A DNA stretch of 64,000 nucleotides, taken from assembly GCA_003971905.1 (NCBI GenBank), contig RSEE01000053.1, positions 124,001 through 188,000 on the forward strand, written 5' to 3'. The position numbers and the translations under genes were made by a program. Positions 13,096 through 64,000 of the stretch are shown in pieces. The DNA is from Moniliella sp. 'wahieum' (taxonomy: Eukaryota). The notes under the pieces were generated by a model that was given only the letters and a program-made list of their open reading frames with translations, was not told where the DNA came from and searched no databases. Position 1 is the stretch's first letter; each line of letters starts with the position of its first letter.

Positions 13096-13834
13096 GGGCG
13101 GGGCAGGGGGCAGGGGGCAGCGCAGGAGAAGGGGAAGGGGAAGAAGGGAGGTGATGGTGGTGGTGGGTGAAGCGGCGGGCAGAAGGAGGACGGTGCAACG
13201 AAGGTACGGAGCACTGCGTGAGCACGAGGGATGGTTGATGGTCAATGGCCGATGGTGCAGAGGGACGGTGATGATGCTTGGTGCATGATGCATGCTGCAT
13301 GCTGCCTGCTGCAGATGCCTCCCTGCATGCGCGCATGAGAATAATTGGCCCGCCTGGCAGCGCACAGCACAGCAGAGCGCCCCCATCGCCTCATCTCGGG
13401 CAGACACGGCCGCCCAGGTGGTTACTAAGCGTTCAAGCACCCTCCCACTCTGCCCCCCGCCTGCCCGCGAGCGACCAGCAGTCGATCAGTGACTAGTGAT
13501 CGGTGGTGGGCGGCAGCACTGGGCTGGTGCTGCGTCGTCAATAGCAGCTAGGAATGCCCGACGGATGATGCGCTGACATTGCGCAGCGCAGCGCCCCCGT
13601 AGGCGATGATCCCTGCACCCTGTCCCCCCACGGCGGCAGTGTGATGGTGACACACCCATGCCAGGGCATGCCGATCCTACCCCCAACCGAGACCTGCACG
13701 GCGCCAGTCTGTCCCCCCCTGGCTCAGCGCGCCTTCGGAGGCAGTAGGCCGCAGGCCTCCGTTGCCCAGGCACTCGTGCTGGTGAGCAGCTCTCACGGAC
13801 TCGTGGCTAGTGAGCGTGAGTCGTGAGTGCTGAG

Positions 13835-13879
13835 CCGGTGACCGGTGACCGGTGACCGGTGACCGGTGACCGGTGACCG
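13835..13879. repeat. (CCGGTGA)6 palindromic heptamer array
   Basis: Six perfect tandem units read directly. Confidence 0.97.
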
Positions 13880-15427
13880 CCACCTGCATGCGGCGCCAAC
13901 AGCAGGGCTTGTTACATGTTACAGTTGTAACAGCGTGTAACCCCCGGCACAGCAACGCACCGCACCCCCACGTCGTATGGCATAGCACAGGTCCCGCCTT
14001 GGCCGGCAGACGACCTAGCTCAACTCCTGCTAGCTCTCGCTCGCAGCAGCCCGTCGCCATTCGGCGCGTGTGAGTCCAAGCTCGGCGATAGTGACTGCGT
14101 GCCTGAGGCAGGCCTATGCCATAGGTCTAAGACCCTATGGTCCAAGGCGTCCTAGAACCTAGGGCCCTCTAAGGCTGTGGAAATTGAATGTGACTGAGTG
14201 GGGTTCCATGGCTGGGCGCTGAACCGTTGAACTTCAACGTTCAGTTGAACGTTCAACAACGTTGAACAGTGGCTGGGAACAATACGACCCGGACGCCCTC
14301 GACGGCCTTGGTCCGTCTTGCCTTGACCTCGCCTGTTTCGTCTTAATCAATTGTCTCCCTTTTGTCGCCTTTGAAGTTTGGAGCTTGAGCGCTTCAAGAC
14401 TCTCCGCTTCCCTCACCGATGTTCTTGTTGTTTGCCTTGTCGGGTCCGCAACAGGACGGTACGCCCTGGTACGCCCCCCACAACGTTGCCACGCCGCAAT
14501 TTTCATACACCACAGGGCCACATGCACCATGCATCATGCATCGATCACAAGTCACTAGCTAGTCATGTGACTGTCGCAAATCACACCTCCCAGCTCCGTA
14601 CTCAGTCGAAAGGCACACTTGATCGACTAGAAGCTGGATGATCGGCTTGATCGACTTGATCGACGATCGGCCGACGGGCAGGTGGATGGCGCTGCGCCAG
14701 TGCTGTGCCATGGGCGCTGGGAACATGGAGCATGCGGAAACACCTGTAGAATCTCAGTGGACCTCAATCTCAGGGCGTTATTTATTGTTGGCTTGAAGCG
14801 AGGAGCTTGAAGAGCTTGAAGCTTGAGCTGAGCAGCTCAGCCACTGCCGAGGCGCTGAGGAGCCCTTGGCTGTCCCCTGCTGCTTGCTTGCCGCATCCGA
14901 TCCCACACAACCGCCACCACCCACGCATCCGCCTTTCTTCCTTCCTTCCAAGCCCAATCAAATTTCAAACGTGAATCAAAAACGCTGGTGTTACGTAATG
15001 TGCGCCCTAAGCAGCGTCCGACGTCTCAATTGCATTCACAACCACCAACTAATACTTCAAGAAGTGCCCCCAACCATTGCTTTCCGTGTGCATGTGATCT
15101 GTGACCAACAGCACTCGAACTGGAGTTGGATGCATCCAGGGCATCCCATGCCACACACCAGCTTCACGCAGTCACTATCTTCCGCCATGCATGTGCATGT
15201 GATGGCTCTCGATAACGGCGGCGTGGTTTTAGGACCTACTGCAGTTAGCGCTTATCCTGGCTTACCGCTTACTTCTCCACAGGCCTCGATAACACCCCGC
15301 CTTTTGTTTTTTTTTTTTTGCCCCAGCAGTCCCAGCCCCCGGCTCGAACCCACGTAGCGGGTAACTCAGATGGGGGAGCAGGCAGGCCAGAAGACAACAA
15401 AGAGCAGCGCAAAAATGTAAAAGAAAC

Positions 15428-15516
15428 CTCTCCGACCGGGAATCGAACCCGGGTCTCGTCCGAACGTCCGTCAACTGCATGACAGGGACGTGTCATAGCC
15501 ACTAAACTATCGGAGA
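15428..15516 (-). tRNA. tRNA-Asp(GTC) with 17-nt intron
   Basis: Acceptor TCTCCGA/TCGGAGA+G, anticodon arm CGTCC-CT GTC A[intron]C-GGACG, T-arm CCGGG-TTCGATT-CCCGG, downstream T-runs. Mature length 72 nt. Confidence 0.95.
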
Positions 15517-16769
15517 AGATTGGCATAGCACTTCATTCCCAGTCCCTGCCAAGTCAAGCGCAAAAAGTAACGAGCCGGCTGGTACATGGTAATGCGACTT
15601 CAAGGGAGACCGTCGCCGAGGTGCTGGTGACCGTTTTGGCCTAGCAGGCTATGCGTAGGGGTATATATATGATGTCCGGATGGATGGCGTGCATAAGAAA
15701 TGACATTATTGGATTGGGAAAGGAACGAGATTAACATGTGGGTCTTTAGCACACTTTCTTGTACGGAGCGAGATGGTGTCGTACCCGAGAAACACAAGAT
15801 GGATCTTGGTTATCTATATACAATGAACGACGGTGAGGGTGTCATACCTTGGCTGATCTCGCTCCTTTCCTGCTCTTCCGAATTCGCACCATGCCCTCTG
15901 CCCTTGCTTCTTCCCCACGAACGATTGCTACATGCCTTGAGCTAGGATTATATCTCAACTCTGGTTTCCCTCCCCTAATCCCGACTGCGGCAGGGGGTAT
16001 ATAGTGGATGTGGCTTCGGCCGTAATGTACTCGGACTATACCCCAACGCTCTTCCTCCCATCTGCGAGAAGCGGATGGACGCGTTCGACGCACCCTGCAT
16101 CGTCTTCTTGTACTATGATCCTTTCAGCATGCAAGACGCTCCGGTTCCAGGCCGTCAAGGAGACCAAGTTGGTCGCCGACAGTGGCTAAGCACTGGCGCC
16201 TGTTCCGGTGGGACCCCAGTGTAGAAGCCATACTAGTACTAGTGGTTTCTTTTTGGAGTACGACTGGAATAACCCCGGTGTCGGATGGGGGACAGCTGCC
16301 GCGAATATAAGAAGTGAGTCAAGCTAGTCAAGGAAATGCTCTTTTGGGGGGGGGGCGAAAAAGGAAACGAGGGCGGGGGAAAGTGCCAGGCGTATGTGGG
16401 TTCCGGAGTGATGGGGGACCAGGAGGATTTGGAGGATCATTGCAGGGATGGAGGTGGACCACGCTCCAAGGGGCTCTTGGATGCAAATAAGGAGACCAAG
16501 GTTGCGTACAGTTAAAACACGAAGGGGCTGGGCGACACCAGTGGGACCCCGGGAGAAGAATCTCTGTATCGACTATTGGAGCAAGCAAGTAATGTGCTAA
16601 GAAGACTGAAGTAAGGAGATCATCAGGGATATGATCAAAAGAGCCTTTCAATGCCCTGTGGTCTTGACGACACGCAGGATTGCCACAATTCGAAAAAGTT
16701 GCTAGTGTGTGATAATTGGACGGAACTTACTGAGAAGAGTATATCATTGGAGAAATACGGTCCATCCCT

Positions 16770-21204: not shown

Positions 21205-21957
21205 GACCAACTTTTGGTAGCCTGCATCTCGGTTTTGCCCACTGCAAGAAGCTCTTGGCCGACAAGCTCTACTTGTTCTCGGGCTACTACTGTCCCTTGT
21301 CCAGTAGGGACGAGACACTCGCCGGGGTCCCATTCTTTTTTTTCTACAGCTGTGTTGCGTCGGTCCCGCAATCTTTATTCTCGGATTGAACGACGCGTGT
21401 GTGGGTATAGTTTCACTGAGCTACCGAGTGGACACAGGGGAGGATTTGATCACCAAATAAAGTTAGCTAGAGAGGTGGGCAAGATCTGCGGATGAGATCT
21501 TGGTATACGGTGCAAACGATTGATTAAGTGATTGATGACTTCCAGCCCTACTAATAACTACAGAGCGCTGTCGTGATAGGGCGCTGATAGAAAGAGCTGT
21601 AGGACGGCATTGATAGAAGTGTAAGAGAGGAGCCCCGAGCCGCGGCGTTCGTTCTGGGTATTAGATCGCGTATTATACAAGTGCGCGCTCAACTACGCCT
21701 CGCGCGCTGCCGCGCTTCCGCGTGTGCTTGATGCCAAAAATTCCTGCAACATATCACCGCCGATCAAGCTGTCCAGGTGGCCTTCCCGTTCTACGCTCAT
21801 CGAGCTCATCGTCGTTTCCCTCTCTTGGCAAACACCAGCTTAAAAGGCAACAGGACAACTAAGAGCCTTGTTGGCCGCAACAGCTGTAACTTTTTTTCTC
21901 TTTAATTCTCTCACATGCTCACACATCAGACTGATGTCTCAACTCTCGACGTCCAAT

Positions 21958-21997
21958 CTTCAAGCTTCAAGCTTCAAGCTTCAAGCTTCAAGCTTCA
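21958..21997. repeat. (CTTCAAG)5.7 palindromic heptamer array
   Basis: Read directly. Reverse-complement arrays at 22931-22954 and 23481-23527. Confidence 0.97.
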
Positions 21998-23480
21998 TGC
22001 CAACCTAAGGATGGAGTGAGGGTCATGCAGATCATGTCGATCATTCAGGACAATTATGATCTCAAGGACGCATACAGGCCATGTCGGTGGCCGGCCGAAA
22101 GGTCTAATAGGATGGCACCGTCACGGTTCTGCAACCTGCACACGTGATATAGTATAGTAGGGCTGACGCCCTGACGCGCGGCACCCGACTGACGGATCAA
22201 ACTTATTAGATCAGTGGTGCTGTGTTGTAGTATGAGTATGCGAAAAGGTGTTTGGACTACTACGGAGATGAAAACATGCACACGAGAGGTAAGACTGGTA
22301 AGATGTAAGATGGATTGGATGTGCAGGAAGATGCATCACGCATCATGACACAACGAGACATGCCATCAAGCTCACCATTAGCGCCATTGGATATTGATGG
22401 CTTGGAAAGAATCGAAGGGCCAGCAGGGTATACAAAGCCCTTCGGTAGGGATGCAAAAGCATATTCTCGCTTGCAAAGGCTGCGAAACCTAATGCGATGA
22501 TCATCTTATAGTAGACTTTTTTGTCGCCACACAGTAGGACCCTTTGTGAGTGTCTTCCTGTCACTCGTGCCTGCTGGTGGAGCAGAACGCGGTACTAATT
22601 CAGTCGCGCCATGGGTGATGCGCTGATTGAGGATCGGCGAGAGCGCAGGGCAATGGACAGAGAGAAAGCGCGTCAGTAAAAAACACTGTTGGGTGGTGTT
22701 CGGTCCTGTTCAACACATTCTACAGTGCTGGTTTTGTTCCATGTTGCGCGAGAGGGCGAAGCTGGGTTGGTGGAAGCTTTGTACATACCTACACATTTTA
22801 AAACGCGTTTGAAGTGTGTATCATCATGATGAGAAGTTGCCGTGAGGTTGTGCATCATTATCTCACAAGAAACCGCACTCAGTACTCACTCCCTATACTG
22901 ACTGAGAGGCTTGGCCCTTCATGCACTTCATGAAGCTTGAAGCTTGAAGCTTGACACAAGTCACGGTGGGGTGACATGGGAAGGGTGAAGAAAAGATACG
23001 TACATTGCTGTGCCGGTGTGGGCCATGTAGTAGCTCGCAGGGAGAAGGAGAGTGGCGGGTGAGGTGGGGGATCTTCGAGATGATCGATCGGGATGCGCGC
23101 GGGTGAGAGATGGATGGTGTTGGATGATCGATGCATCGTTGAGGATTGCGAGTGTGGGCGGAGACATGGACAAAAGGAGTGTTGTGTTGGTGGTGTTGGT
23201 TGGGACACGTCAGCATGCTTGGCTAGCTATAGGGCTGAGGGGCTGAGTATTGAATCCTGGAACTATTAACTGAGTACACTATAGTACGATGATCGACTGG
23301 GGCTGTAGCTGACTGCTCGATGATCGTATGCTGATCAAATTGATCAGCGTACACACAGCCCAAGTGGAGCAGGTAGGATTGCCTTGATTAGTCACTGGAG
23401 CACGTAACTAGGCTGAGCAAACAGAGGTGCTCAAGCCAGTCGTAGTCATGCTAGCTTGAAGCTAGCAGCAAATAAAGTAC

Positions 23481-23527
23481 CTTGAAGCTTGAAGCTTGAA
23501 GCTTGAAGCTTGAAGCTTGAAGCTTGA
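23481..23527. repeat. (CTTGAAG)6.7 palindromic heptamer array
   Basis: Read directly. Confidence 0.97.
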
Positions 23528-31994: not shown

Positions 31995-32027
<33 letters not shown>

Positions 32028-33564
32028 TTGCTGTCGTTGCAGTAGTTGCTGCTGCTGCTGCTGCTGTTGCTGCTGTTGCTGCTGTTGCTGCTGTTGCTGC
32101 TGTTGCTGCTGTTGCTGCTGTTGCTGCTGTTGCTGCTGTAGGAGACGTTGATCCTCCTGTTGCTGGTAATAGTATTGGTGAGATTGCATCTGCGTCGCCC
32201 CCTCGAACCGAACGTCAGAGCGCGTTTGGGGCTGCTGAGATCCATAACCTTGCTGCGCGGCAAGGCCTGCTGGCTGACCGTATTGCTGCTGGGACCGGTT
32301 GCCATACTGCAACTCCTCTTGGTACTGCTGCCCAGTGGTATTGGGCTCTTGATTTTGGTCGACGATCCGTCCTGAAGCATACTGCGCCTGCTGCTGGGCG
32401 TAGGCGTCGTGCTGCTGCTGCTGTTGGAGGGCGAGGTGCTGTTGAGACAAGGGCTGACCTTGCGAGAGGGGTTGCTCTGTTTGTTGGGCGCGAGCTCGTT
32501 CGTTGGCCTCCTCTGTTTCGCCCTCGCCTTCGGCCTCGGCATCTTCATCTTCCTCTTCCTCCTCCTCGTCGTAGTAGCCACCCTCTTCGTCATTTTCCGA
32601 CCATTCCTCATGATCACTCAGCTCGAGGACAGTCGAATTACCAAAAATGACGGCCGACTTGCGTCGGTTGGCCAAAATGGCAGGCGTCGCGCCATCGACG
32701 CGGCGAGACAGGGCCGAGCGCTTGCCCGACGAGGCAAGGATGTTGACGCGCTGCTCGCGCGTCTTTACCAGGTAGGACTTTTGGATGTTTTCCTGTACCT
32801 GCACCTGGTCCGCTTGCGTCGCTGAGGAGAGGTCCACATTGCGATGCTTGTTCAAGCGAGCCAGACGCTCAAAGGGGCTCTCGATATTTTCGGCAGGGAT
32901 GTAGCCCACCTCTTGGGTATGTAGGACGCGCACCAGCCACCTGGCCATCGAAGCGTTGTCGGTCAAACTCGAGCCAGCAACGGGGGCAAGGAAACGTACC
33001 AGTAGGAGTTGGAGTCATCGAGAAGAGTGAGACTGTTGCCCTTCTGGACAGTCGCCTGTCCTTCGACAGTGGCAATAAAGTTGTGCAGGGCATAGACCAG
33101 ATCAAAGTCGATGTTTTCGTCGGGGATGGAAGGAGAGGAAGACAGGTCGCCCTCGTCCTCGTCCTCCTCGCCATAGTCGTCCTCGTCCTCTTCCTCGTCG
33201 TATGCGTACCCGCCCGAACATACTGGCCTCCGCTCGTGCGCGTACTCACCCATGTATTCGCCGGGTACAAGGGACATGGCGGCGGCGGCGCCCTGCCCGC
33301 CAGGCCAGCGGCGGACGGGCCGAGGGAATCTGCGTAGTCGTCGGCCTCGTCGCTGAAGCCACTGTTTTCAGCGACATGGGGGTTGTACAGTTGGGCGCCC
33401 TGCGCGCCGGTGTTGAGGCCAGCATCGCCGACGTGGTGGACGTCGGCCTGGGCCTGGAGGGCAGCGAGCTTGGCGGCCTGGTTGCGTGCGGCGATCTGGG
33501 CGGCGGGGCGGCGGTTGTCGAGAGCGAGGCTGGCGGACTGGCCGCCAGTTGCAGCAGAGGCCAT
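28853..33564 (-). CDS. Tea4/Bud14-like polarity protein: SH3, polyQ tract, Ras-association-like domains
   Basis: SSSPSIPDENIDFDLVYALHNFIATVEGQA..LLDDSNSYW|WLVRVL..GYIPAENIESPFERLARLNKHRN and VLRVFAAANLETASTYKTVLLNETT. Intron ~32943-32999. Confidence 0.9.
31966..32137 (-). repeat. Coding polyglutamine tract with (CAG CAG CAA)n core
   Basis: (ctgctgttg)n on the + strand, translating to long Q runs in ORF 31428-32966. Confidence 0.95.
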
Positions 33565-41973: not shown

Positions 41974-42711
41974 ATGATCGGAACCACCCTTTCGCGCATT
42001 GCCGTCCGCGCTGCTCGCACCGCCATTCCTACCGGCGTGCGTGCCAAGCACACCCTCCCCGACCTTGACTACGACTTTGGCGCGCTTGAGCCCTTCATCA
42101 GTGCGGAAATCATGCAGACGCACCACAACAAGCACCACCAGACTTATGTGACCAACCTCAATGTGGCCGAGGAGAAGCTGCAGGACGCGGTAGCCAAGAA
42201 CGACATTGGGCGACAATCGCGCTGCAAAGTGCGCTCAACTTCAATGGTGGTGGACACATTAACCACTCGCTGTTCTGGAAGAACCTGGCGCCTGCAGGCA
42301 AGGGCGTGGAGAGCTTCCCGAGGGCGGCAAGTTGGCTACGGCGATCAGCAAGGACTTTGGCTCGCTCGACAACCTCAAGACCAAATTCAACGCTGCCCTT
42401 GCTGGTATTCAGGGCTCGGGCTGGGGCTGGCTGGGGTACAACAAGGCTACGGGCGAACTGGAGATCGTTACGACTGCCAACCAGGACCCCCTGTTGACAC
42501 ATCCCCCTGGTCGGTATTGACGCATGGGAGCACGCTTACTACCTCCAGTACAAGAACGTCAAGGCTGACTACTTTAAGGCGATTTGGTACGTCTCCCTAT
42601 CCATTCCCATCCTGGTCTCCTTGCGTGGCCGGCAACCAGTACTGACGCTAGATATGTTACAGGAACGTTGTCAATTGGAAGGAAGCCGAGGCTCGTCTCA
42701 CGTCGGCCTAA
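41974..42711 (+). CDS. SOD2: Mitochondrial Mn superoxide dismutase
   Basis: Presequence, [66 protein letters not shown]. Intron ~42587-42662, stop TAA 42709-42711. Confidence 0.97.
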
Positions 42712-42938: not shown

Positions 42939-43020
42939 CGAACGACGCAGGGGTCGAACCTGCAACCTCCTGATTACAACGAATTCGTAGTCAGACGCGC
43001 TACCATTGCGCCAGCCGTCC
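42939..43020 (-). tRNA. tRNA-Arg(ACG) with 10-nt intron
   Basis: Acceptor GGACGGC/GTCGTTC+G, D-arm GCGC-AATGGTA-GCGC, anticodon arm TCTGA-CT ACG A[ATTCGTTGTA]A-TCAGG, T-loop TTCGACC, downstream T-runs. Confidence 0.93.
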
Positions 43021-43218: not shown

Positions 43219-43757
43219 ATGGAACCCCAAACGAAGCCCACGCAGTATGTACCCCCGTCCCCGTCCCCGTCCCCGTCCCCGTCCCCGTCCCCCCCTCCCC
43301 GTCCCCGCCCCCAATCCCGTCTAGCATTCGGATGCCGTACTTACCTTATGACGTGGCAGTCCGCCCAAGGACGACCCCATCTCGGTCGCCGAGCTGGCCA
43401 AGTACAATGGCACCGACGACAGTTTGCCTGTGTACGTGGCAGTGAAGGGGGTGGTGTTTGATGTGTCGCCGCGGAGGGAGATGTATCAGCAGGCAAGGGG
43501 TACAGTGTGTTTGCCGGCAAGGACGCTAGCGCCGCGTTGGGGAAATCGTCCCTGAAGCCCGAGGATGCAATTGCCGATTATTCGCACCTGACCGAGAAGG
43601 AACTCAAAGTGCTGAACGACTGGTTTGCCTATTATTCTAAAGTGCGTCCCCCTTTCTCTTGTTGTCTGGTTAACTGGAACTAAATTGACCGAGTTCCATA
43701 ATCCTTTTTCTCATCTTGCTTCAGAGGTACAACATCGTCGGCAAGGTTGTGCCTTGA
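43219..43757 (+). CDS. Cytochrome b5-like heme/steroid-binding protein (MAPR family)
   Basis: ELAKYNGTDDSLPVYVAVKGVVFDVS..YSVFAGKDASAALGKSSL..LNDWFAYYSK|RYNIVGKV. Two introns (~43245-43358, ~43641-43724). Confidence 0.93.
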
Positions 43758-49631: not shown

Positions 49632-49652
49632 ACCGAGGCTCATAGCAATGCA

Positions 49653-51132
49653 TTAACGGTCCACCTCACCAAACACCAAGTCCATCGTCCAATGATGGCT
49701 ACCATGTCAGCGACATCGTGGTGACGCGAGATCATGTCGGCACCCGCAAGGTGGAGGAAACCGGGGGCACGGATGCGGCAGCGGTAAGGCCGGTTGGTCC
49801 CGTCCGAGACGAGGTAGACGCCCATCTCACCCTTGGGTGCCTCAATGGCCGCATACGTCTCGCCAGGGGGCACATTGAAGTTCTGGGAGAAGAACTTAAA
49901 GTGGTGAATCAGACTCTCCATGCTCTCCTTCATGTTGGCGCGGGGTGGAGCAGTGAGCTTGTGGTCGTCCACCTTGACCTGACCAGGGGGCATCTTGTTG
50001 ATACACTGCTCAATGATCCGTAGCGATTGCCGCATCTCCTCCACCCGGCAGAGGTAGCGATCAAAGCAGTCGCCATTCTTGCCGACCGGCACTTCGAAGT
50101 CCACCTCGTCAAACTTTTCGTACGGTTGACTCTTGCGAAGGTCCCATGGGATACCGCTTCCACGCAGCATGGCCCGCTGAAGCCATAGTTGAGGGCCTGG
50201 TCAGCCGTGACACGACCAATGCCCACCGTCCGCAATTGCCAGATACGGTTGCCCGTCACCACTTCCTCAACCTCATCAAGGCGCGAGCTAAACTGGGAGG
50301 CCCATACATGAATGTCATCCAGGAGACCGACCGGAAGGTCAAAAGCCACGCCGCCGGGGCGGAAGTAGGCTGCGTGCAGACGGGCACCACAGACACGCTC
50401 ATAAAACTCCATAAGCTTCTCACGTTCCTCGAAACCCCACAAGAAGGGCGTCACCCACGTCCATCACGTGGGACAGGACAGCCATCAAGTGGTTATTCAG
50501 TCGCGAGATTTCGGAGTACAGAGTGCGAATCCACTTGGCGCGCTCGGGAACCTCAATGTTGAGCAGCTTCTCCACCGCCCGGACGTAGCACAATTCGTTG
50601 GTCATGGCCGACGAGTAATCGAGACGGTCAAAGTAGGGCATGGCCTGCGTGTAGTTCTTGTACTCAATCAGCTTCTCTGTGCCGCGATGCAAGAGGCCCA
50701 CATGGGGGTCGGCACGAAGAATCTCTTCGCCATTGAGTTCGAGAATAAGACGCAGCACACCGTGAGCAGCAGGGTGCTGAGGGCCAAAGTTGATAGTAAA
50801 GTGGCGCATGTTGGCCTCTTTGCGCGAGCTCGCCTCCTTGTAGATCGCGTTCGACATCTCGATCGATGCACGCAGAACGATGCGGTCGCCATACGGGTCA
50901 TGCTCGACCTTGGTGGGGGTGGTGATTACGGGGATACGCTTGTCAAAAAACCCGTGCTCGAGGCGATGAGGGTTGGCGCTGCCGGGGGGGACCTCGTACT
51001 CGGGCAGATCCTCGGCATTCGCCGCGCGGACAGACGAGGCGAGGCCACGTGAGCCAAACAGACGCCGAAGGCAAGCGGGCCACGGGCAGGGGCAGCGGCA
51101 CGCAGGGCGCCGGCGAACACGTGGGGGCGCAT
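49653..51132 (-). CDS. NDUFS2: NADH:ubiquinone oxidoreductase 49 kDa subunit (complex I)
   Basis: [70 protein letters not shown], ends DLVFGEVDR*. No introns seen, frameshifts present. Confidence 0.97.
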
Positions 51133-53200: not shown

Positions 53201-54780
53201 AGTCGCCTCTTCTATACACTGATGAGAAGCCCCTCCTTCTTCCATAGCCCCACCCGGAACCGCCAATCAGCCCAAGCGTGTAACTACCGTGAGTCCACCT
53301 TAGGACTTGTAAGGGATTGTGGGGGGGGGGGGGCTGCTGGCGGCGCCCACTCGTGACATCAATAGACGTACCAGGCAGAGGAATCGGAAATGGGAGAGCA
53401 TGATCATTTACATAACTGTCAATCACGGTGATATGATGGGAATGAAGCCAGATTTGCGACTGTGATCAGGCCGAGTGTGTATTCATGGGGACCTGCATGC
53501 GTGCATGTGTGCTACAGCAGTGCATCAGGATGGTGGGCCCGGGTTTGTGAAGAATGGACAGCGGAGGTGCATCACAGTGTGCACAGCGTTAAGGGCAAAC
53601 ACGTTGGCTTGCGAGTCAGCTGATGAGCCCGTATTGGCAGGCGGTATTTATTATCGTCCTAACTCTCCTCGACGAGAGTTTGGACTCGTACCCCCCAACC
53701 ACCCACGCCCGAAGGAAAGAGAAGCGCTGCAGGCACCGATTTGCGCCCATGACTTCGGGGCGCACAGGCGAGGTCCTGGCGCCCACGGTGCATTCAACAA
53801 GTATATCGGGAAAAGAAAACGTGCCAATAAGTGTCGTTGTTCCTCTCGAATGTACGGGAGGAAGGGGCAGGAGTAGTGAGTCCATGCCGAGAAGCTCATT
53901 GTTGGGGCACAGGGAGGTCGTCTTTTTCTTTTAAGCGTGGGGATACGCCTTATGAGGGTAGGAGTGTGATACCTCACGGGCGACGGCGGACGGCCAAACC
54001 GGGGTGAGCCCAAGCCCCCCTTATTGCCACCATTTCCTATAGGTTGTGTCCATACACGTAAAGATCGGGTGACTATATTCTGACGTAGTTGCACATTGAA
54101 CAGGACATGCACTCCATGTATTGCATCAAAACGGTGAACATATTCCATTCGATGTGTGCGAACTATATCGAATCCCGTTCGTACGGCCGAGGTCGCCCAT
54201 ACGCTGCTTGTTGTTGTTGGTCTCTATGTACTTTTGGTCACATATAGTTTGGTTGATCCTACTCCCATTCTAATTTCTTCTTCGTTCTCAGCGTCTCGCC
54301 CTTTTCCTGTTTTTCCTCTTCGCTCCATGTCCTCTGCTCACGTTTCTTCCCTACCAGGATTGCTACGTTTCTCCGCCTTTTCCTCTCGACTCTGGTCTCC
54401 CTCGACTTAATCCCGACGACTGTGACACTTTTAATGTGATTACTTTTTCGCGTCTTTGGTCTTGTAATACACAGATGAGCTCTGGTTAATCTTCCGGATC
54501 TATCGTCTCGTTCTCTTCTTGCAAAGCCCTCTCCCCATCCATCCAGTTCCCCTCGTCAACTAGCAATAATGAACTGGACAACCATTTCGTTCCTGTCTAA
54601 GGATGGGAGGGTTATTGTCCCTTCCCTTGCTTCATATGTCTTTGCGTTATTCTTTGCCTTTTTATCTCTATTCTGTAACCATATCATTGACAGAGATTAA
54701 GGCTGGGACAAACAGACGCTTCTGCGCTTGAACCGACCCGTTCATCCGGCGTATGTATTGATTATTAGCGCCAACCCCGT

Positions 54781-56060
54781 TTAAGGAACCAGGGGGATCG
54801 CCAGGATATCAGGACCCTTTGGTGTCCGCCATCTGTTCCTATACACGAGGTAGCGAGTGTGGATATACGGATGAACCCGGTAGACATCCGAGCAGTAAAC
54901 CATCTCTCCATTGAGACTTTCAGTAGTTAATTCCTTCCACTTGCCAAGCGTCTTGCCCGCTGTCTTGGGGGCGTAGTATCCTCGTGTCGTCAAAACTAAA
55001 GGGAAAAACGGTTCGTGGGCGCGTCCCTGGTACTTCACGCACGGTATGTCCATATGGCTTCAGATCCTGCGCAGAACCAAGACAGGGTGTAGGGGCGAGG
55101 GAGAGAGCGTGTGGCTGCCTGCATGCAAAAATCAAAAGGAAGGAAACGAGAAGCAGCGCGCGTAAGTCTCGACAAGACCCCACAAAGGGCTCGAGCAGCT
55201 CCACAGGCGTTCCTGCGCTGCCGTTATGCCACGGTTAACGCCACTGTGGTAAGCGCACCACTGAGACGGAATCTTAACTGAAGGACAAGCATTACTTTCA
55301 TTGCAGTATAACCAACGCAAGCCGTAAATTCGCAAGAGTACTAATAGTATGGATAGAGAAGTCGAGCGTCAAGGGAGGAAAAGGTGGAAGGGAAACCAAT
55401 GTGTATGCCAGCGTTGGTTGGTAGCGATTCAGAGGTGGTTGGTAGGACGAAACAGGCCAGTAGTCTTCGATATGGGAAACAGAGAGGATGGTCGATGAGG
55501 AACACTGTTGGCAAGGCTTTAACCGGGCCGGTAATGAAGCAGTGTAGATATCAGAGCGGGTATGCACGGTATGTAGTAGCTTTGCTGAGAAGTAAAAAGA
55601 CTATATAATAAGCCGCATCAGCCTGTGCTTTCAAGTTGCTGACAGAGTGCACAATGGGGACAGCAGACTGAAGGAGTCTTCTGCAAGACGGGGCAAAATG
55701 GGTATTAAGCATCGTATCATGAGACCATGCGATCATGGCTATAGCTGCCGACGAAGAGGTACGCAACGATGGATAAGTTGCCTGTGGTGATTGCCCGGTG
55801 ATTAGTGAATGTCACTAGGGAATCTCACTCGCCTAAAACAGGACTGGCGCGTGTTTGCAGGGTAGTTCTATTACCAAAAATGTGGGGCGCTGTTGTTTAT
55901 GTCCGGAGATAACCCAACCGCCCCGGAACATAGTGGAGGGATCTGCCCAAACCTGTCGTATAGCCTACTACTTCGCCTTCCCACAGCGAACCTTCTAGAA
56001 CCACTACATACGGCCAACAGGGTCTCACTAATATACGCCCGACCCCGTCGGATACACAAA
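54781..56060 (-). mobile_element. Heavily decayed REL-endonuclease non-LTR retrotransposon (CRE/Cnl1/MoTeR-like)
   Basis: Ordered remnants SLPARL, LVSLPPFPPLTL, C..C...W..H..V, VELLEPFVGSCRDLRA, VKYQGRAHEPFFPLVLTTRG..TLGKWKE. Confidence 0.55.
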
Positions 56061-56149
56061 ACGTAGTTGCCACGCGAGGCTACATTTTGAGTAAGTAGAC
56101 CTCCTCTCCGCTACCTCCGTTCGCCGTCAATGGTGTTTGAGCTTTTGAA

Positions 56150-59100
56150 GAATGAAGCTTGAAGCTAACGCACCCCTAACCTACGGGTCGGGCCTGAGTT
56201 TTCACCTAATGCACATTGCCATGAGCCACGGGGGTTGTGAAACGGAGAAAGGTACTGGGCGAGGTTTTGGAACGATATAGCGACTCACATGTCACAGAGG
56301 CCTTAAGCATGATGCATGAAAGGGGGGGGGGGGGCGTATGGGCGAGTGAGTACTGAGTGGTGATGAAGAAATGAATGAGACGGGGCGCTTCTTCCAGGAA
56401 ATGTCGTCCCGAATCTACAGAATTGCCACACTGCAGCTAGGGGATAGGATACAAGCCTACTGTAGCTACTAACTGTGGTACTTCGAAAGGTGACCGGTGA
56501 CAGTCATATGGGTCGGAGCGTTACGCGTTACCGGCGTTACCATCCCCGTCTCCTTGCCGTACTACTGTGGCAACTATTGGCGTGCCTTTTCTTGCGAACA
56601 CGCAGTACCTTGCCAGCCTGGTTATGATCGATGATCGATGAGTTCGATGAGTACGTATACTGAGTCATGATGCATGATGTATGATGCATGACACCGTGTT
56701 CGGGCAGATTCGGGCAGAACATTGAAAGTTGACCGGTGACCGGTGACCCATGAGAATCCGTATTGAATTCGATGAACGATGTCGATGAATGTATGACGTT
56801 TGAAGCTTCGTTGGACGTTGAGTACGTTGAATATTGAATGAACTGAGTACTGACTGAAGCACCAGAATGAGAGGGTGGCAAAAAGGCGAAGCTGGCCCGA
56901 CCGAGCTTGGCGCTGCAGGGCGCTGCTTGGTGCCTGGCGGCCTAGCCGAGCTGACTTCCACAGTGTGCGGCAGTCAGCGCTGACGGTCAGCGGTCAGTAC
57001 GTCAGTTCTCAGAGGCGGTTGCCGTCGCTCTTTCGCGGCCTTTGGCGGCTGCGCCGCTCCGTCAGGGTATCAATCAGTTCACGATCACAACATCACGATC
57101 GTTGAGAACATACAGGGTCCATCGGACCCACGTCAGCGCGTCAGCTCCCGCTTGCTCCCGCCTGCTCCCGCGCGACGTCTATAATAGGATCCTTTTGATG
57201 CGGTCCAGGTGTATTGGCGTGCACCGCTTTCGCCGTGAACGTACGCACTCCAGCGCTCAGATTGAGCATGATCGATGTTCTCAATGCCTCTGATCGTTAG
57301 TCGATGATATGTGCTATGAGGCTTATGATGCTTGTGATGCTTGTGATGCTTGTGATGCGTGATGCATAACCGGCATAACCGGCATAACCGGCATACTCGG
57401 CATAATCGGCATAACGGTGGCGATAGCATATCCAGGCAACAACCTCGGCCGCATAACAAATGGCATGGATTTATTCAGCGGTGTTTCCTCCGCTTTAGGT
57501 TCAACGTTCAGGCCCTCCCGGGCGTGGTAGCCAGTTAGCTCCTTAAGGGGGAGGTGCTAACGTCCTCTCTTTCCTGGTTCTTCTGCATGTACCTGCAGTC
57601 TAAATCCTTCCAACCCCCATTCACGTGCGAATGCTCGCTATAAACATTAAACGTTAAACGTCATTCGGGCTGATCCTAAACCCTGTTGAGCCCCTGTCCC
57701 ACCTTATTCCCGTCGTCTGTTCGACCCCGCCCGAAGGTGGGCAATCTGAGACTCTTATTGCAGCAAAATTACTAATGGAAGGGTCCAGCGCGAAAGGACG
57801 GCGCGGGTTCCAGATTCGCTGTCCGCGGGTGTGAAGCCATGCATGCACCAACATGTATGGACACCAGGCACCAAAAGAAATGCTTAATCGATGTACTCGA
57901 TGAGCTCAACCCCCCCCGCCGTGTGCCTGAATTGACCTCGCTTCTTCCGACCTGTGTGGCAACATTCCAAGACAAAACATAATTGTGGTTGCCTCAGCGC
58001 CTCAGCCATCAGTACTCAGTTCCAGCCAGTTCCAGCCACACTGCCCCACCTTGCCTCAAGCCCCCCTCTCATTCACGCATCTGCAGAAAAAACTGTTGTG
58101 CAATCGTCAAATTTGTTAAATCTCGATCTCTACCAATTGTAATCATACGAGATTGACAGAGCTTAAGGCTGGGACGCGGGAGAAGAAACGCTGCACCTAA
58201 TAAACCGACCTCCTGATCCATTAAATCGGGGTCGATCGTGTGCCACTTAATAAGCACGGCCAGGTTGCGACGGTGACCGGCTTCACCGATCGCGGTGCAC
58301 TTCCGGCATCATTTGCATCATTAATCATTAGCCCCGAGGCTCCGCGGACTCCGAGGGGTGCTGATGAGCGTGTACCAGCGTAAGCTAACGACTAGTAGCC
58401 TTGTCCGGTAGCCCTCGTTCTGCTTCCTACCACCAACGCCTATCTCTCGCCCGCAATTCATCGCCTACGCTGCTGTCCTAAACGCTTCAGCATCCATTGC
58501 GTTCTCCACAGCCGAGTGGACCATGACGTCGCTACAAGTCTGCATTGGTCAGAAAAAATTGCCCAGCGCTTTGATAATACTCTGCACAGTGTATAAGTCG
58601 CGCGATACGAGTGTGAGGCCACAAGTAAAGGGAAGAAGCAAAGGATGCGCTGATAGGGGAAAGGAGGACACAATCGGCGAAGAACAGTGAGAAGATTTGC
58701 CTGATTAGCTACGAGGACCGTGACACAGGGTTTTGACAGTCCTTATCCTGGCATTTATTGCAACGCTTCCTACTGTCATCGCCAAGTAGTCCAGCCCAGT
58801 TCAACCCCGCAACCATAACCACCCTTCTCCCCCCCCTCTCCACCCAATGGCCGTCCCATGCTGCGCAATGCATCTCATCCTGCACAGCAGCGGCGCCTCC
58901 AGCTCCGACTTTCCTTCCCTCTTCTATTGCCCGCTTTTTACCCTGCTCTGCCCCGTACGCACGTTTTCATGGGACGTGTGGGTTTCCATGTAACCTTTGT
59001 AGTGCAACAGGGAGGGAAGAAAGGGGATCGAGCCGGAAAGAGATAATCAACCCTGTGCGCGCAAGAGGCGGAACAATGAGGCCTGTGGCAGGAGAAGTGC

Positions 59101-62100
59101 AAGGAGAAGTGACTAGTGACGGGTTTGGCGCCAAGAGCAGTACAAGAGCAGCACACACAGGTCGGTTCCCATCAGCTGCATCCGCCTCATTGATCGGTAA
59201 ACGTTGTGACGCGGGAGTGTTACACATCAGGTATCGATTGATTGAATATTGATATTGACCGGTGACCGATGACCGGTGACCACCGATATCCCAAATCCCT
59301 TCTCAGATTCATATACCAGTGCTCAGCGCTCAGCCGCTCAGCGCCCATCATGCATCATGCATAGTTGCAACTAAAACCCAAGAGTGTTTGTGCTCGACGG
59401 TTGAGACCCTAGCGTGAGGGCATGAGCACATGTGGCGCTTGGCGCAGGGCGCAGCATTCTGGCCACAATGCCACCCGTCCCAGATCCTCAATCACCGAAT
59501 ACCGATCACCGGGCACACTTCAAGCTTCAGCGCTTCAGCGTGCCAGACGTCGTATGTGTCGCATCCGAAGGTCTGTATGCTCGGCAAAAAGCGTCAATAG
59601 CTGACCCGCGGTCCCACAGAATGTGTTTCGTCGGAGTGCGGACGCATCGAGTATGGCGAATGTCTGAACGCACTGAACTCGAACGGGTAGATTTTAGAAC
59701 GCCTTAATTCTGCTGGGCGTGCTCTCATGCACATGGGCTTCGGCCTCACCGGTCACCCAATGCGCGCGAAGCGCGGAGCCTCTCAGCCTGTGGCCTGAGC
59801 GCCTGAGCCCGTTACGCGTTACGGTTGTCTGCAATAGTCATCAAATAAATTGAGTCCCATGATGCATGACATGTGACATGTGACATGCGACAAGACATGG
59901 GCAAAGAGGAAGAGGGGCGAGCGGGTGCGATGCATCTCAATCCCACAGGCGGCAGGCTCAAGTCATGCATCAGTACTCAGTACCGGTCAGCGCGTCCCCA
60001 TCAATATGACAGTGACTAGTGACGCGTGACGCGTGACGCGTGACTGACTCGTGGAATGCTGCGTATGAATATGACACGCGACATGTTGCAAACATTCATA
60101 CTTGCAGCATGCGGCGTGTGGCACACAATCAGGTACAAATCCGGGAGGCTTGGAGCTTGGATTGAAGCTTGAAGTCAAGCTTCACAATGGTCACTGGTCG
60201 TATGTCGCTGTCACCGGTCACCGGTCACTAGTCACTAGTCCCTTGCCCTTGTCATTAATCATTAAATATTGATCGATGGTCGATGATCGCCGATCCCATG
60301 TTTCTCGATCCCATGTATCTGACACCATGCACCACGCACCATACCTTAGGCCTTAGGAGGCCTCCTCTTAGGCCTTACGCTAAAGCGTTATATGCCATCA
60401 TGTAAACTAGTTACTCGTTCCTCGCAGTGTTGCCGGCACGCGCTAAACGTTAGCGTTACCGGTTACCGGTTATCCGTCGGTTCCCAGGGGACACCGGGCG
60501 AAACCGGGTCGTCCTGCTTCTTTAAGCTTTAAGCTTTAAGCCCGTAAACGTTAAACACCAGCATCCGGTCCACCATATCTTCTGAGATCCTCAGATCTAA
60601 GTCTGAGATCTGACATGCTGACAGGGTACCCTGAACTTCAGGCCCTGAGGCCTGAGGTCTGGGGTATGATATACGATGCATGGTGAATGATGCAAGCGAC
60701 CCCCTGAGGGAGGCCTGAGCCTCAGGCCTGGGGAGCTTAGCGCTTAGCCCTTAGGCCTTACTGGAGCTTCAGATGTGAGCCTCACAGCTGAGCCGCGTCA
60801 ACGCCAACGCATCAATGCATCAGCCACGCTATTCATCATGCACCACCAACCCCTCCCCCCCCCCAGCGCACCCTGCATCATTTGCGCCACAGTCTCAATG
60901 TTCGTTGAACTTGAAGCTTGAAGCTTGAGATCTGAGAGCGTGAGGCTTGAAGCTTGAGTCAGGCCACAGAGCCTCAGCTTCCTCCGCAAGATCATCGATC
61001 ACAGCGCTGCAGGCCCATCGACTAGCCGTAGCAGACCAAAACCACCATCATGCATCATGCTCGCCCAGACTACTAGACAGGGAAAATGAGAGGATCGCTG
61101 CCATTCGCCTTTCTGGCATTCTAGCGTTGCTCCATACCGGTCTTACACCACTTCTCTCCATGCATCTATTCTCTTGGTACCTGGCCTACTTCGCATATAC
61201 CCGCTCTTTCATTTCATGCCGAGAGATGTGAAGCATAATGCATGTAATGTGTGACACGTGACGGATGATCGAGGACATGGACAGGACCAAGGCTTGTGAC
61301 ATGTGACATGCGACATTTCGCGCGTGATATATGGCACGCCATGCACGCCATGCACCACGCTTGACATGGACACGTGACAAAAGTGACGTCGTGACCTGGT
61401 GGCACGTGTCACATGTTAGCCTTTCAAGCTTCAAGCTTCAAGCTTCAAGCTTCAAGCTTCACACGTTCACGCCTAACTTGCTCCATGTATCGAGTATCAG
61501 CTACCCCACCCCCGTCCTCAGGTATCTGATCTCAGAGCGCGGAGAATCCGCGCCCACGAACACCCAAGAGATTAATCGTCGTCGATATATACACGTTAGT
61601 AAAAACGCGGAGGCCACATGCATTCGTCAAACTCGTCACGCGTCACCCCATGTCACGAACTGCATATCATACACGGCCGTCACGTAATGCGTAACGATGC
61701 ATGGAATGCATAATGGAGGAGGCACGAGATACTGAGATCTGTGGTACCACGGAATCTAATATGTCCCCCGTGGGATGCTCCCGTGCAGAAGCCGGCCTTT
61801 CAGGTTATCGAGAGGATATGTGCTGCAGAATCAAGTCAACGTTTAACGTTTAACGATCTACTCTTCTTGCTCACCATCTGGCTCAATTATCGATTCCCGC
61901 CGGGTTAAATTTAAACGTTAAGGCTTTTAAATTTTAAGGCTTATGGCTTAAGCCGCTTAAGCTTAAGCCGCTTAAGGCGTAAGGCGTAAGCGTAAGGCCT
62001 AATTGGCACTCGGCCTAACCGGCCTAACCGGCCTAACCAGTAACCTAGTAACCCGGCCGAACACGGCCTAACATGGAACAGGGCCTAAGGTTTAACAGGG

Positions 62101-63230
62101 CTTAACACGTGAAGCATCGTGCGTATCACCCGTCAGATATCAGATGATCGATGAGGGCGCTGCGGCGCTCAGGCGCGCTGAGGCTCAGCCCTGGGCTGAG
62201 CGCCCTGAGCCTCAGGTTCTCTGGTTGAACCGCTCAGACGTACCCAGGCGCTCAGGCTCAGGTCTTAGCCTCCACGTGGAATATGCATACGGGCCTCTAC
62301 GTTGACTAACATCGTTATGTTGCGTCAGTAGGGTTGTGTTGTCGGGTAATTGATTTAGTCGCTTAAATATTCAACGCTAAGTTCCAAGTCACTAGTCACT
62401 GTAATTAGCCACTAGTACTGTGTGGCAGTGGAAGGCGAGCAAGGCAGGGGAAAAGATGGTGTGGATGCGATCAGGAGGAAGGCAGCCCGGAGGCCCAACA
62501 GGAAGGGGCGGAACGGAGGCGAAAGGCGAAAGGGCCGCTCGCACATGGAGCTAACAATAGTCACTAGTAGTCACTCTCGTCCACACGTTTCAAACATTCA
62601 CACAATCCCCATCCTGCTCCGTGAGGCTGGCATCGATCGCGTCCCCGGATCATCGATCATCGACCATCGACCATCCGCCTCACATCATCACACGACCCTA
62701 GCCAACCCTCGGACATGCACCATGCACCATGCATCATGCATCATGCATCATGCGTGGTCTGTGGCCTGCCGCATGAGTGATGTGGCTGGTGACTAGGGAC
62801 TAGGGACTAGTGACTTCATCTGCATCATGCACATCATGCATCCGATACCATCCAGCACGTGTCGCCGGTCACACATCATCTGTGGGCTCTACACTTGGGT
62901 GCTAACATCGTCGGCGGCGGAGCAATGACGGGCAGCAGGCCGCTGGCTACCAGCTCCAAACAGCTGGAGCTGGAGCTGAAGCTAGCTCAGTACTGAGACT
63001 CAGTTGAGTGTGCTCAGCCGCTGACGCTGGAAACTAGCTTGAATTGCGGCAACGCTGAGCGTCAGTGGAACGTTGAACCTGAATGTGCAAGCGAAAAAGC
63101 TTCAGCGCAAAAGCCCAGATGTCTTCGAAGCCTGAACAAGCGCAAGCCTCCCCGATCATCTCGATCTCCCGGCTTTAGATCTTCAGAGCTTCATCCTTCA
63201 AGCTTCAAGCTTCGAACATCAAGCTTCGAG
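56150..63230. repeat. Gene-free tract dense in (TNA + palindrome)n micro-arrays
   Basis: Dozens of short arrays, e.g. 56625, 56730, 59860, 59963, 60013, 60211, 60456, 60522, 61423-61461 (TTCAAGC)5.6, 61836, 61905, 62734, 63196. No recognisable ORF. Confidence 0.9.
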
Positions 63231-64000
63231 CTCCAATTCGCAACCTGGGCGGCCGCGCCACAGTCCTAGTCAATCCCAACGCCGCCCGATCCTTGCCCAG
63301 CCAGGCTTCACTTCAAGCCGGCTCTCCATCTCTTGTCGACTTTCACGTTCATTTTCGTCTCACGACGCCATCCCCTGCCTTACTCCCATCTTCCATCTTC
63401 TCCAGGCACCCTCTTGCCATCCAGTGTGTCCGTTAACAGCCTGGCGCATTGAGCGAGTCCCCGGTTGCGTACAGTTCTGGCTTCCAACCCTTCTACTCCC
63501 CAAGCGCCCTGATCGTCATCAGGCTTCCAGTTCCAAACGCCATTGACCAACACTTGCTCTGCAAGCCCAACTCGAACCCCCGCATCGCCCCAGCTTCTGG
63601 TGGAGGCAGTTCCTGTTCGCATTGCGTTCAGAGTCCCTAGCACACTGCACACTCGGCTCGCTGCGCTTCCGCTGCTGCTGGCGATCGGTCTGTTAGTAAT
63701 CACTCAGTTCCGGGTTCCACCCTCATCCTGCATTCCTAACCATTCTCTCGTTTGCAACCGCAGGCCATGCATCCACTGAGTGGTACTCCGGACGATGTTC
63801 AGGCCAGCAGTGCACCTGACCCGCCCCCACACACTGGTCCTGCCTCGGCAACCAACCCACCAAACCCCCACCCCGGATAGCCCCACCTTCGCTTCTGGCC
63901 CCTCGCCTCTCGAGGCTGTCGCTTCACCCCAGCCTCATCCACCTGAAGAGGAATCTCCTTCCGACCCTCCAGCCCGACGGCGCGGGGGTAAGGCCGCTTC

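Follow-up and report, generated by a model that had tools for sequence, protein, structure and literature searches.

For hAT, Transib and MULE elements and for RAG, hairpins have been described on the flanking DNA, with footprints left after end joining (PMC5499845). In one account of Ac/Ds, the footprints include palindromic insertions whose centre is the complement of the flanking base and, in a fungus, short deletions together with P-nucleotide insertions (PMC5873905). Here we analysed tandem arrays of palindromic 7-base-pair (bp) units, each built on a T-N-A trinucleotide, in a stretch of 64,000 nucleotides (nt) from Moniliella sp. 'wahieum' (assembly GCA_003971905.1, contig RSEE01000053.1, positions 124,001 to 188,000); this whole stretch is called the window, and coordinates are counted from its first letter. 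The flank-hairpin footprints described for hAT, Transib and MULE, and the P-nucleotides of V(D)J coding joints, are like the loci in the window in that both target copies remain and the joint, made through hairpin opening and end joining, consists of inverted bits of flank or short deletions (PMC5499845, PMC5873905). The loci in the window differ in their 7-bp duplication, in even joints that are nearly always 2 nt, and in the absence of an element. To our knowledge, their density is far above any known footprint load.

By duplication length alone, the loci are also like the hAT7 and Kyakuja transposons of Basidiomycota, for which 7-bp target-site duplications are described and which are reported from Pucciniales and Laccaria; hAT7 is grouped with Ac and Tam3, with flank-hairpin chemistry (PMC12730594). 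The duplication in hAT footprints is given as 8 bp, or 7 bp in the hAT7 group, and the 7 bp found here fits hAT7 only, by length (PMC12730594). Nothing ties hAT7 or Kyakuja to this genome. Galileo, an element of the P superfamily in Drosophila, is described with 7-bp duplications and the odd-palindromic consensus GTAGTAC, so that symmetric targets around one central base have a precedent; Galileo comes from an animal and its centre is A-G-T, not T-N-A (PMC2775673). Trapped topoisomerase II in yeast is a further case in which a symmetric enzyme leaves a staggered break, and fill-in and end joining are reported to turn it into a small tandem duplication (10.1101/2020.05.03.075358). Template switching at quasi-palindromes is similar in that it makes one arm complementary to the other, and differs in that the loci in the window gain 7–9 bp at a fixed distance from T-N-A. 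Classical quasi-palindrome events have longer arms and do not change length, P-type excision leaves element ends rather than P-nucleotides, and topoisomerase II makes a 4-nt stagger with duplications of 2–4 bp, and is not known for 7-bp duplications, T-N-A specificity or inverted joints.

From the sequence features presented below, the arrays are probably scars of recurrent breaks with a 7-nt stagger, closed by hairpin-type (P-nucleotide-like) joints and later enlarged by slippage; the simplest candidate origin is the excision of a DNA transposon with 7-bp target duplications that has since departed.

Excess of T-N-A heptamer palindromes

The general unit of the arrays has seven bases, T-N-A plus a 4-bp palindrome, and is equivalent to one base plus a 6-bp A....T palindrome. 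Exact period-7 runs of 14 bp or longer numbered 77. In 43 of them the unit consisted of a single base and a 6-bp palindrome, compared with approximately 11% of all 7-mer necklaces (an arithmetic estimate), and in all 43 the palindrome was of the A....T type. Far fewer runs were counted at periods 8, 9 and 10 (10, 12 and 2, respectively). Exact arrays used at least 12 different A....T palindromes, which bore out the view of an earlier note on this DNA that no single motif had been amplified.

Units of T-N-A plus a 4-bp palindrome numbered 329, against 169 +/- 12 in Markov simulations, and clustered at 56–64, 20–24 and 12–16 kb, all non-coding. The CTTCAAG/CTTGAAG unit (core AGCT) was the commonest in the window (48 of 329). 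A 4-bp palindrome between two T-N-A hinges with the same N was found 107 times, compared with 2.5 expected; in other words, 107 of 183 cores between same-N T-N-A hinges 4 nt apart were palindromic. For the control hinges (A-n-T, C-n-G, G-n-C, T-n-G, C-n-A, T-n-C and G-n-A) palindromic cores amounted to 2–9 of 63–190, and at hinge gaps of 2, 3, 5, 6, 7 and 8 nt the palindrome effect was absent.

Geometry of the duplications

The basic unit was a T-N-A-centred 7-mer, abTNAcd, for which complementarity of the arms was not required. In tandem arrays, T-N-A plus a palindrome can be distinguished from an odd palindrome, x'w'-TNA-wx, by the run edges only. Of the 12-nt period-7 A....T runs, 19 of 20 lay in two mirror phases (P = 7e-10), either x'w'TNAwx followed by x'w'TNA or TNAwx followed by x'w'TNAwx, with edges at the palindrome centre and the hinge; among runs of at least 14 nt the commonest phase was two complete odd palindromes. 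The 12-nt runs were not decayed 14-mers or longer arrays, because the 2 nt outside them matched the expected copy in 5 of 19 cases, which is chance level.

Isolated odd palindromes around T-N-A occurred at chance level, with 43 against 40.8 expected at 54–64 kb and 138 against 129 in the remainder, and every case in the odd-palindrome excess had a neighbouring copy at +/-7. Therefore, T-N-A 7-mers were favoured substrates or products of duplication and not a favoured motif, which ruled out a favoured binding motif as the explanation. Of 48 exact tandem 7-mer duplicates that had no spacer, however, 43 were perfect odd palindromes, and since isolated odd palindromes stood at chance, palindromy was made by the duplication event and was not pre-existing.

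Duplicates with a spacer, which are an independent class, decided the geometry. In the class with two identical 7-mers separated by 2 nt, 20 had a T-N-A centre, and in 14 of these the spacer matched the neighbouring 2 nt in reverse complement, compared with 12 of 161 for the 15 other centre types (Fisher P = 9e-10); GCTCATC ga GCTCATC, CTTCATG ca CTTCATG and GGTTATA cc GGTTATA are examples. With a 1-nt spacer (n = 7, in effect 8-bp repeats), the neighbouring base was complemented in six. The 7-mers duplicated in the spacer class were mostly non-palindromic. Representative loci are given below.

21795 to 21810: GCTCATC ga GCTCATC, two intact copies of a non-palindromic 7-mer, between which the final 2 bases of the left copy are repeated in reverse complement; the clearest scar class.
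22917 to 22932: CTTCATG ca CTTCATG, of the class with two intact copies around a 2-nt insert (T0-P2-T0).
59794 to 59808: CCTGAGC g CCTGAGC, two intact 7-mers with a 1-base complementary spacer (T0-P1-T0), seen earlier as an 8-bp tandem GCCTGAGC x2 at 59793.
59810 to 59823: CGTTACG x2, a perfect odd palindrome exactly duplicated, with run edges at the palindrome centre.

A census of duplicated T-N-A 7-mers yielded 83 loci in the window, compared with one for A-N-T, five for C-N-G and three for G-N-C, and with approximately 0.27 per window in a Markov-3 simulation. The 83 comprised 21 and 18 loci with a replacement form, 6 and 10 with a spacer form, and 28 array starts. The two mirror replacement forms were about equally frequent (21 vs. 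18), so that the process was strand-symmetric, and together made 39 loci with a 2-nt replacement; most loci were 1.4–2 units long. Copies of fixed length were thus found side by side with spacers of 0, 1 or 2 nt and boundaries 2 nt either side of T-N-A, and P-nucleotide-like joints were seen both in the complementary spacers and at the 39 replacement loci. Target preference was symmetric: in 55 reconstructed targets, pooled over both strands and with T and A at -1/+1 fixed by definition, N was G or C in 94 of 110 and position +/-4, just outside the 7-mer, in 82 of 110. As for the by-products that a two-hairpin model predicts, TNA-pal4-pal4-TNA occurred twice against 0.05 expected, and TNATNA was not enriched (40 vs. 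35).

In-register palindrome switches

The earlier note had described arrays that switch palindrome while the hinge stays in 7-bp register, and all six strings that it quoted were found in place. They belong to the following arrays, in which founder denotes a candidate original 7-mer.

59858 to 59892: CATGATG / CATGACA / TGTGACA / TGTGACA / TGCGACA, with the string TGAtgca-TGAcatg x3 from 59860; a tgca-to-catg switch with CATGACA (ca..ca) as putative founder, joints tg|ca to its left and ca|tg to its right, and a mutated hinge in the final copy.
59961 to 59983: AGTCATG / CATCAGT / ACTCAGT / ac, with the string TCAtgca-TCAgtac x2 from 59963; a tgca-to-gtac switch with CATCAGT as putative founder and joints tg|ca and gt|ac.
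60011 to 60045: AGTGACT / AGTGACG / CGTGACG / CGTGACG / CGTGACT, with the string TGActag-TGAcgcg x3-TGA from 60013; a ctag-to-cgcg switch with joint ct|ag followed by cg|cg three times.
60209 to 60241: TGTCACC / GGTCACC / GGTCACT / AGTCACT / AGTCC, with the string TCAccgg x2-TCActag x2 from 60211; a ccgg-to-ctag switch.
60602 to 60615: TCTGAGA / TCTGACA, with the string TGAgatc-TGAcatg from 60604; a 12-nt period-7 run in which a perfect odd palindrome is followed by a putative founder with an unrelated right arm.
61905 to 61921: TTAaattTAAacgtTAA, with the string TTAaatt-TAAacgt-TAA; in the first pair the hinge is complemented, so that all 10 bp form one perfect palindrome.

Switching in register was real and above chance, on the basis of approximately 16 junctions in 64 kb. 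Unit pairs at +7 were identical in 41 cases and differed in 16, of which 10 had the same hinge with another palindrome and six another hinge (palindrome also different in five, the same in one); these 16 heterologous pairs compare with a mean of 3.75 at distances 8–13 and 15–20 (Poisson P = 2e-6).

The two to four coordinated, symmetry-preserving changes that the earlier note had assumed for each switch were not borne out. Among 104 in-register neighbours with a T-N-A hinge but a differing core, a comparison that the earlier note had proposed, 15 were palindromic against 6.1 expected (P = 0.001), so that palindromy was indeed kept more often than expected, but the excess reflected full replacement of the core and not paired substitutions. 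Palindromy was kept in 0 of 23 neighbours with one core difference, 7 of 39 with two (expected 1/9, not significant), 0 of 24 with three and 8 of 18 with four (P = 4e-4), and the split of 7:8 between two and four differences fits unrelated palindromes (6:9) rather than stepwise paired substitution. In 89 of the 104, palindromy had been lost, in 23 through one difference; because such single symmetry-breaking differences were common, symmetry was not being maintained. The alternative posed in the earlier note, that symmetry is generated or maintained, was thereby narrowed to generation de novo, in line with the variety of palindromes and with joints that are inverted copies of the neighbouring arm, and maintenance by selection was not supported.

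A switch needs no coordinated substitutions, since the chimeric middle unit can be read as a founder 7-mer with two different arms. At 60209–60241 the founder would be GGTCACT, with the unrelated arms gg and ct: to its left the right arm is cc, the complement of gg, giving joints cc|gg, and to its right the left arm is ag, the complement of ct, giving joints ct|ag. The same reading fits 59858–59892, 59961–59983, 60011–60045 and 60602–60615. None of the arrays switched twice or went back to its first palindrome, but only four were long enough to inform on this. The opposite type of switch, with adjacent perfect odd palindromes and a non-palindromic joint, occurred five times. At 61905 there is no direct repeat, because the complemented hinge makes the 10 bp perfectly palindromic; this is one of eight such cases compared with 107 with the same N.

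Proposed origin of the arrays

In the mechanism that we propose, a symmetric, sequence-specific enzyme would cut with a 7-nt stagger at abTNAcd. The sequence itself shows the 7-mer directly duplicated and, between the copies, a few bases that repeat the neighbouring arm in inverted form. Three outcomes were observed. One was two intact copies around one or two inserted complementary bases (T0-P-T0, periods 8 and 9). In another, the inverted copy of the first 2 bases of one copy stood in place of the last 2 of the other (abTNA b'a' / abTNAcd, period 7), or the mirror image of this, so that one copy was a perfect odd palindrome and the joint a 4-bp palindrome. Perfect odd palindromes, finally, were exactly duplicated. 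From a founder with two unrelated arms, left events would give b'a'|ab joints and right events cd|d'c' joints; the palindrome would thus switch with the hinge in register because each arm gives its own joint. The joints may have arisen from hairpin-capped flanks that were opened 1–2 nt away from the tip, or because the polymerase turned around in an equivalent way during fill-in; arrays of three to seven copies may stem from replication slippage or from repeated hits on newly made perfect sites. The agent would be a cut-and-paste DNA transposon with 7-bp target-site duplications, since gone from the site, which we infer only, because the window contains no element.

Several observations weigh against excision footprints. 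The order of founder and derived copies is read from structure alone, in one sequence, and the footprint density would be very high (83 loci in approximately 25 kb of non-coding DNA). Outcomes were unusually uniform, nearly always 2 nt, and end joining usually yields many variants. The joints were even palindromes, and odd-centred joints of the Ac/Ds type were not enriched (7 at T-N-A vs. 0–9 at seven control centres), so that the hAT (Ac/Ds-type) footprint signature, with insertions centred on the complement of the flank, stood at control level. Among 1517 candidate pairs in the window, no inverted-repeat element had flanks with a T-N-A-centred 7-bp duplication, a general inverted-repeat/duplication scan of the window gave no element, and no element copies flanked by the same duplication were found within it. 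No transposase domain was detected in 150 of the 171 open reading frames (ORFs) of at least 45 amino acids at 51.5–64 kb, nor among the 150 longest of 327 ORFs of at least 90 amino acids in the window. A 3-bp (Harbinger-like) duplication around a 4-bp remnant of an element end was ruled out, as all kinds of 4-bp palindrome occurred and whole 7-mers were duplicated. It is possible, though rather doubtful, that the agent is instead an undescribed activity (a domesticated or host nuclease, or a new mobile element) that would make 7-nt staggered breaks at S|nnTSAnn|S across open intergenic DNA, and not a conventional resident transposon.

Alternative explanations

A replication error without a break, in which the nascent strand switches template at a quasi-palindrome (by fold-back or between strands), copies the opposite arm and returns out of register, would explain why joints are inverted copies of adjacent bases, why arrays are nearly self-complementary except at N, and why the window is without a transposon, but is unlikely to be the source of the arrays. 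Being blind to sequence, such an error should hit all symmetric centres, whereas A-N-T, C-N-G and G-N-C gave 1, 5 and 3 loci against 83 for T-N-A; the inverted template switching suggested in the earlier note, if purely sequence-blind, is not supported in view of this confinement, which suggests a sequence-specific cut. Such an error would also need two switches, with no more than 2–3 nt paired, and a return that is always 7 nt upstream, and a defined cut is a simpler account of boundaries lying exactly 2 nt from T-N-A and of intact 7-mers around a 1–2-nt insert. Classical quasi-palindrome correction adds no 7–9 bp, and arm correction that is sequence-independent and without net insertion did not agree with events that added 7–9 bp at T-N-A only. 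Very unlikely is selection for functional elements, be they stop codons in three frames of either strand, structure-forming insulators or protein-binding arrays. Every T-N-A does read as a stop on one of the strands (TGA, TAA or a complement of these), a spacing of 7 nt lets three units reach all three frames, and the arrays occur in non-coding DNA only. The third stop is unused, however, as T-n-G hinges (including TAG) had palindromic cores with the same N in 7 of 121 cases, at chance level, and a single intergenic region (21.4–24.7 kb), bounded by two genes of one strand, has both TGA and TCA arrays. Most loci are no longer than 1.4–2 units, the complementary 1–2-nt insert of the T0-P-T0 class has no functional reading, copies decay through single symmetry-breaking changes (23 cases), and a protein would be unable to read arm complementarity over at least 12 palindromes. 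Together with the 89 of 104 neighbours that had lost palindromy, the TAG hinges and the mixed orientation spoke against a stop-codon or structure array under selection.

Ordinary birth of microsatellites with chance juxtaposition, that is, independently slipped 7-mers that came to lie adjacent and in register, is highly improbable. Slippage is evident from arrays that reach 6.7 copies and from hinge variants that have expanded, and long-range register is absent, the distance between adjacent loci being 0 modulo 7 in 12 of 56. Chance juxtaposition does not agree with 16 in-register heterologous pairs against 3.75 at other distances, nor ordinary slippage with the dominance of period 7 (77 runs), with the share of palindrome-type units (43 of 77 vs. 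approximately 11% of necklaces) or with T-N-A specificity; seeding was T-N-A-specific with palindromic joints, although later growth was slippage-like. A single ancestral long 7-bp array was ruled out by the same 12 of 56, and hinge sharing between neighbours was modest (27 of 56 vs. 18.3, P ~0.01). Least credible of all is a sequencing or assembly artefact: the assembly does have single-base frameshifts in conserved genes (NDUFS2 and Mn/Fe-SOD) with no space for an intron, but single-base indels are unable to make exact 7–9-bp duplications with complementary joints at one trinucleotide, and the loci lie in non-coding DNA only.

Growth and decay of the arrays, and further repeats

Arrays grow by ordinary slippage and decay via symmetry-breaking point mutation. 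Mutated-hinge arrays at 62648–62810 (CCAtcga, CCAtgca and GGActag) lay beside T-N-A parents and had expanded to 2.6–2.9 copies; since these variants were themselves expanded, array growth was independent of T-N-A. The longer arrays and the region richest in elementary loci are the following.

13835 to 13879: (GGTGACC)n, 6.4 copies, a perfect odd palindrome expanded by slippage.
21958 to 21997: (CTTCAAG)n, 5.7 copies, with the opposite orientation of the same unit at 22931–22954 and 23481–23527.
23481 to 23527: (CTTGAAG)n, 6.7 copies.
56000 to 63400: gene-free, with 19% of bases in exact period-7, -8 or -9 direct repeats with a T-N-A copy, and the majority of elementary loci.
62648 to 62753: TCAtcga turning into CCAtcga, and CCAtgca beside TCAtgca.

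The CTTCAAG and CTTGAAG arrays lie in opposite orientation approximately 1–1.5 kb apart in one intergenic region. Period-9 arrays were present at 57317–57415 and 62011–62038 (TGATGCTTG x4.7, GCATAACCG x5.8 and CGGCCTAAC x3.1); those of GCATAACCG and CGGCCTAAC consist of a T-A-A-centred 7-mer plus a 2-nt complementary spacer, later expanded as a 9-mer. An imperfect hairpin of approximately 55 nt (atgctgcgtatgaatatg ... cattcatacttgcagcat) lies between two arrays at 60057–60112, and the array pairs 59860/59959 and 61245/61403 form inverted repeats 85–142 nt apart. Low-complexity repeats at 12900–13150 and 43250–43320, long G-rich (GAGGCGGGGGG-type) and C-rich (CCCCGT), were unrelated to the heptamers. 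At 32002–32139, 15 copies of the 9-bp repeat TGCTGCTGT lie within a long minus-strand ORF and are probably a coding low-complexity tract.

Gene context of the window

The window is eukaryotic nuclear DNA with exon-sized ORFs. Their products include condensin subunit 2, a KilA-N/APSES-like domain, MatE, RhoGAP, an RA domain, a Mn/Fe superoxide dismutase, a PQ-loop protein and the complex I 49-kDa subunit. Among named relatives, those closest to the complex I fragment came from basidiomycetes, with 76–81% identity (Sporisorium, Puccinia, Exobasidium, Mixia and Microbotryum). One-base frame shifts without space for an intron were noted in the complex I 49-kDa subunit and the Mn/Fe superoxide dismutase (50160–50175 minus strand, 49643–49700; 42198–42210), and in NDUFS2 the sequence '...GFSG' goes on in a different reading frame. 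These shifts are either assembly indel errors or pseudogenes.

A domain scan of ORFs found no recognisable gene from approximately 51.7 kb to the end of the window. Within this part, the 2 kb at 54000–56000 had the lowest G+C of the window (0.49), zero T-N-A duplication loci and no ORF with a Pfam match, and adjoin the zone with 19% repeat coverage. Rfam and transfer RNA (tRNA) scans gave two tRNA genes and nothing else, both intergenic and on the minus strand (15427–15517 and 42939–43020; Met-CAT, 91 nt, and Arg-ACG); the 91-nt Met-CAT gene probably carries an intron.

Novelty and biological meaning

Footprints and target duplications are well known, and a literature search found no description of T-N-A heptamer palindrome arrays. 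New are the T-N-A-centred 7-bp signature, the even 2-nt joints, the saturating density, and the role in creating palindromic heptamer repeats. One testable rule, a staggered cut at T-N-A with an inverted joint, would account for the stop-like hinges, the changing palindromes and the 7-bp register alike, and would show the birth of short palindromic tandem repeats out of non-palindromic DNA. The signature abTNAcd - P - abTNAcd could guide a genome-wide search for the enzyme or element behind it and help to date its activity in populations. If an undescribed activity is responsible, its repair would keep making palindromic heptamer repeats and would lengthen intergenic regions, and 19% of a 7.4-kb gene-free stretch would be its direct product. 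An agent other than a transposon would mean that structured mutation in fungal intergenic DNA has a new endogenous source.

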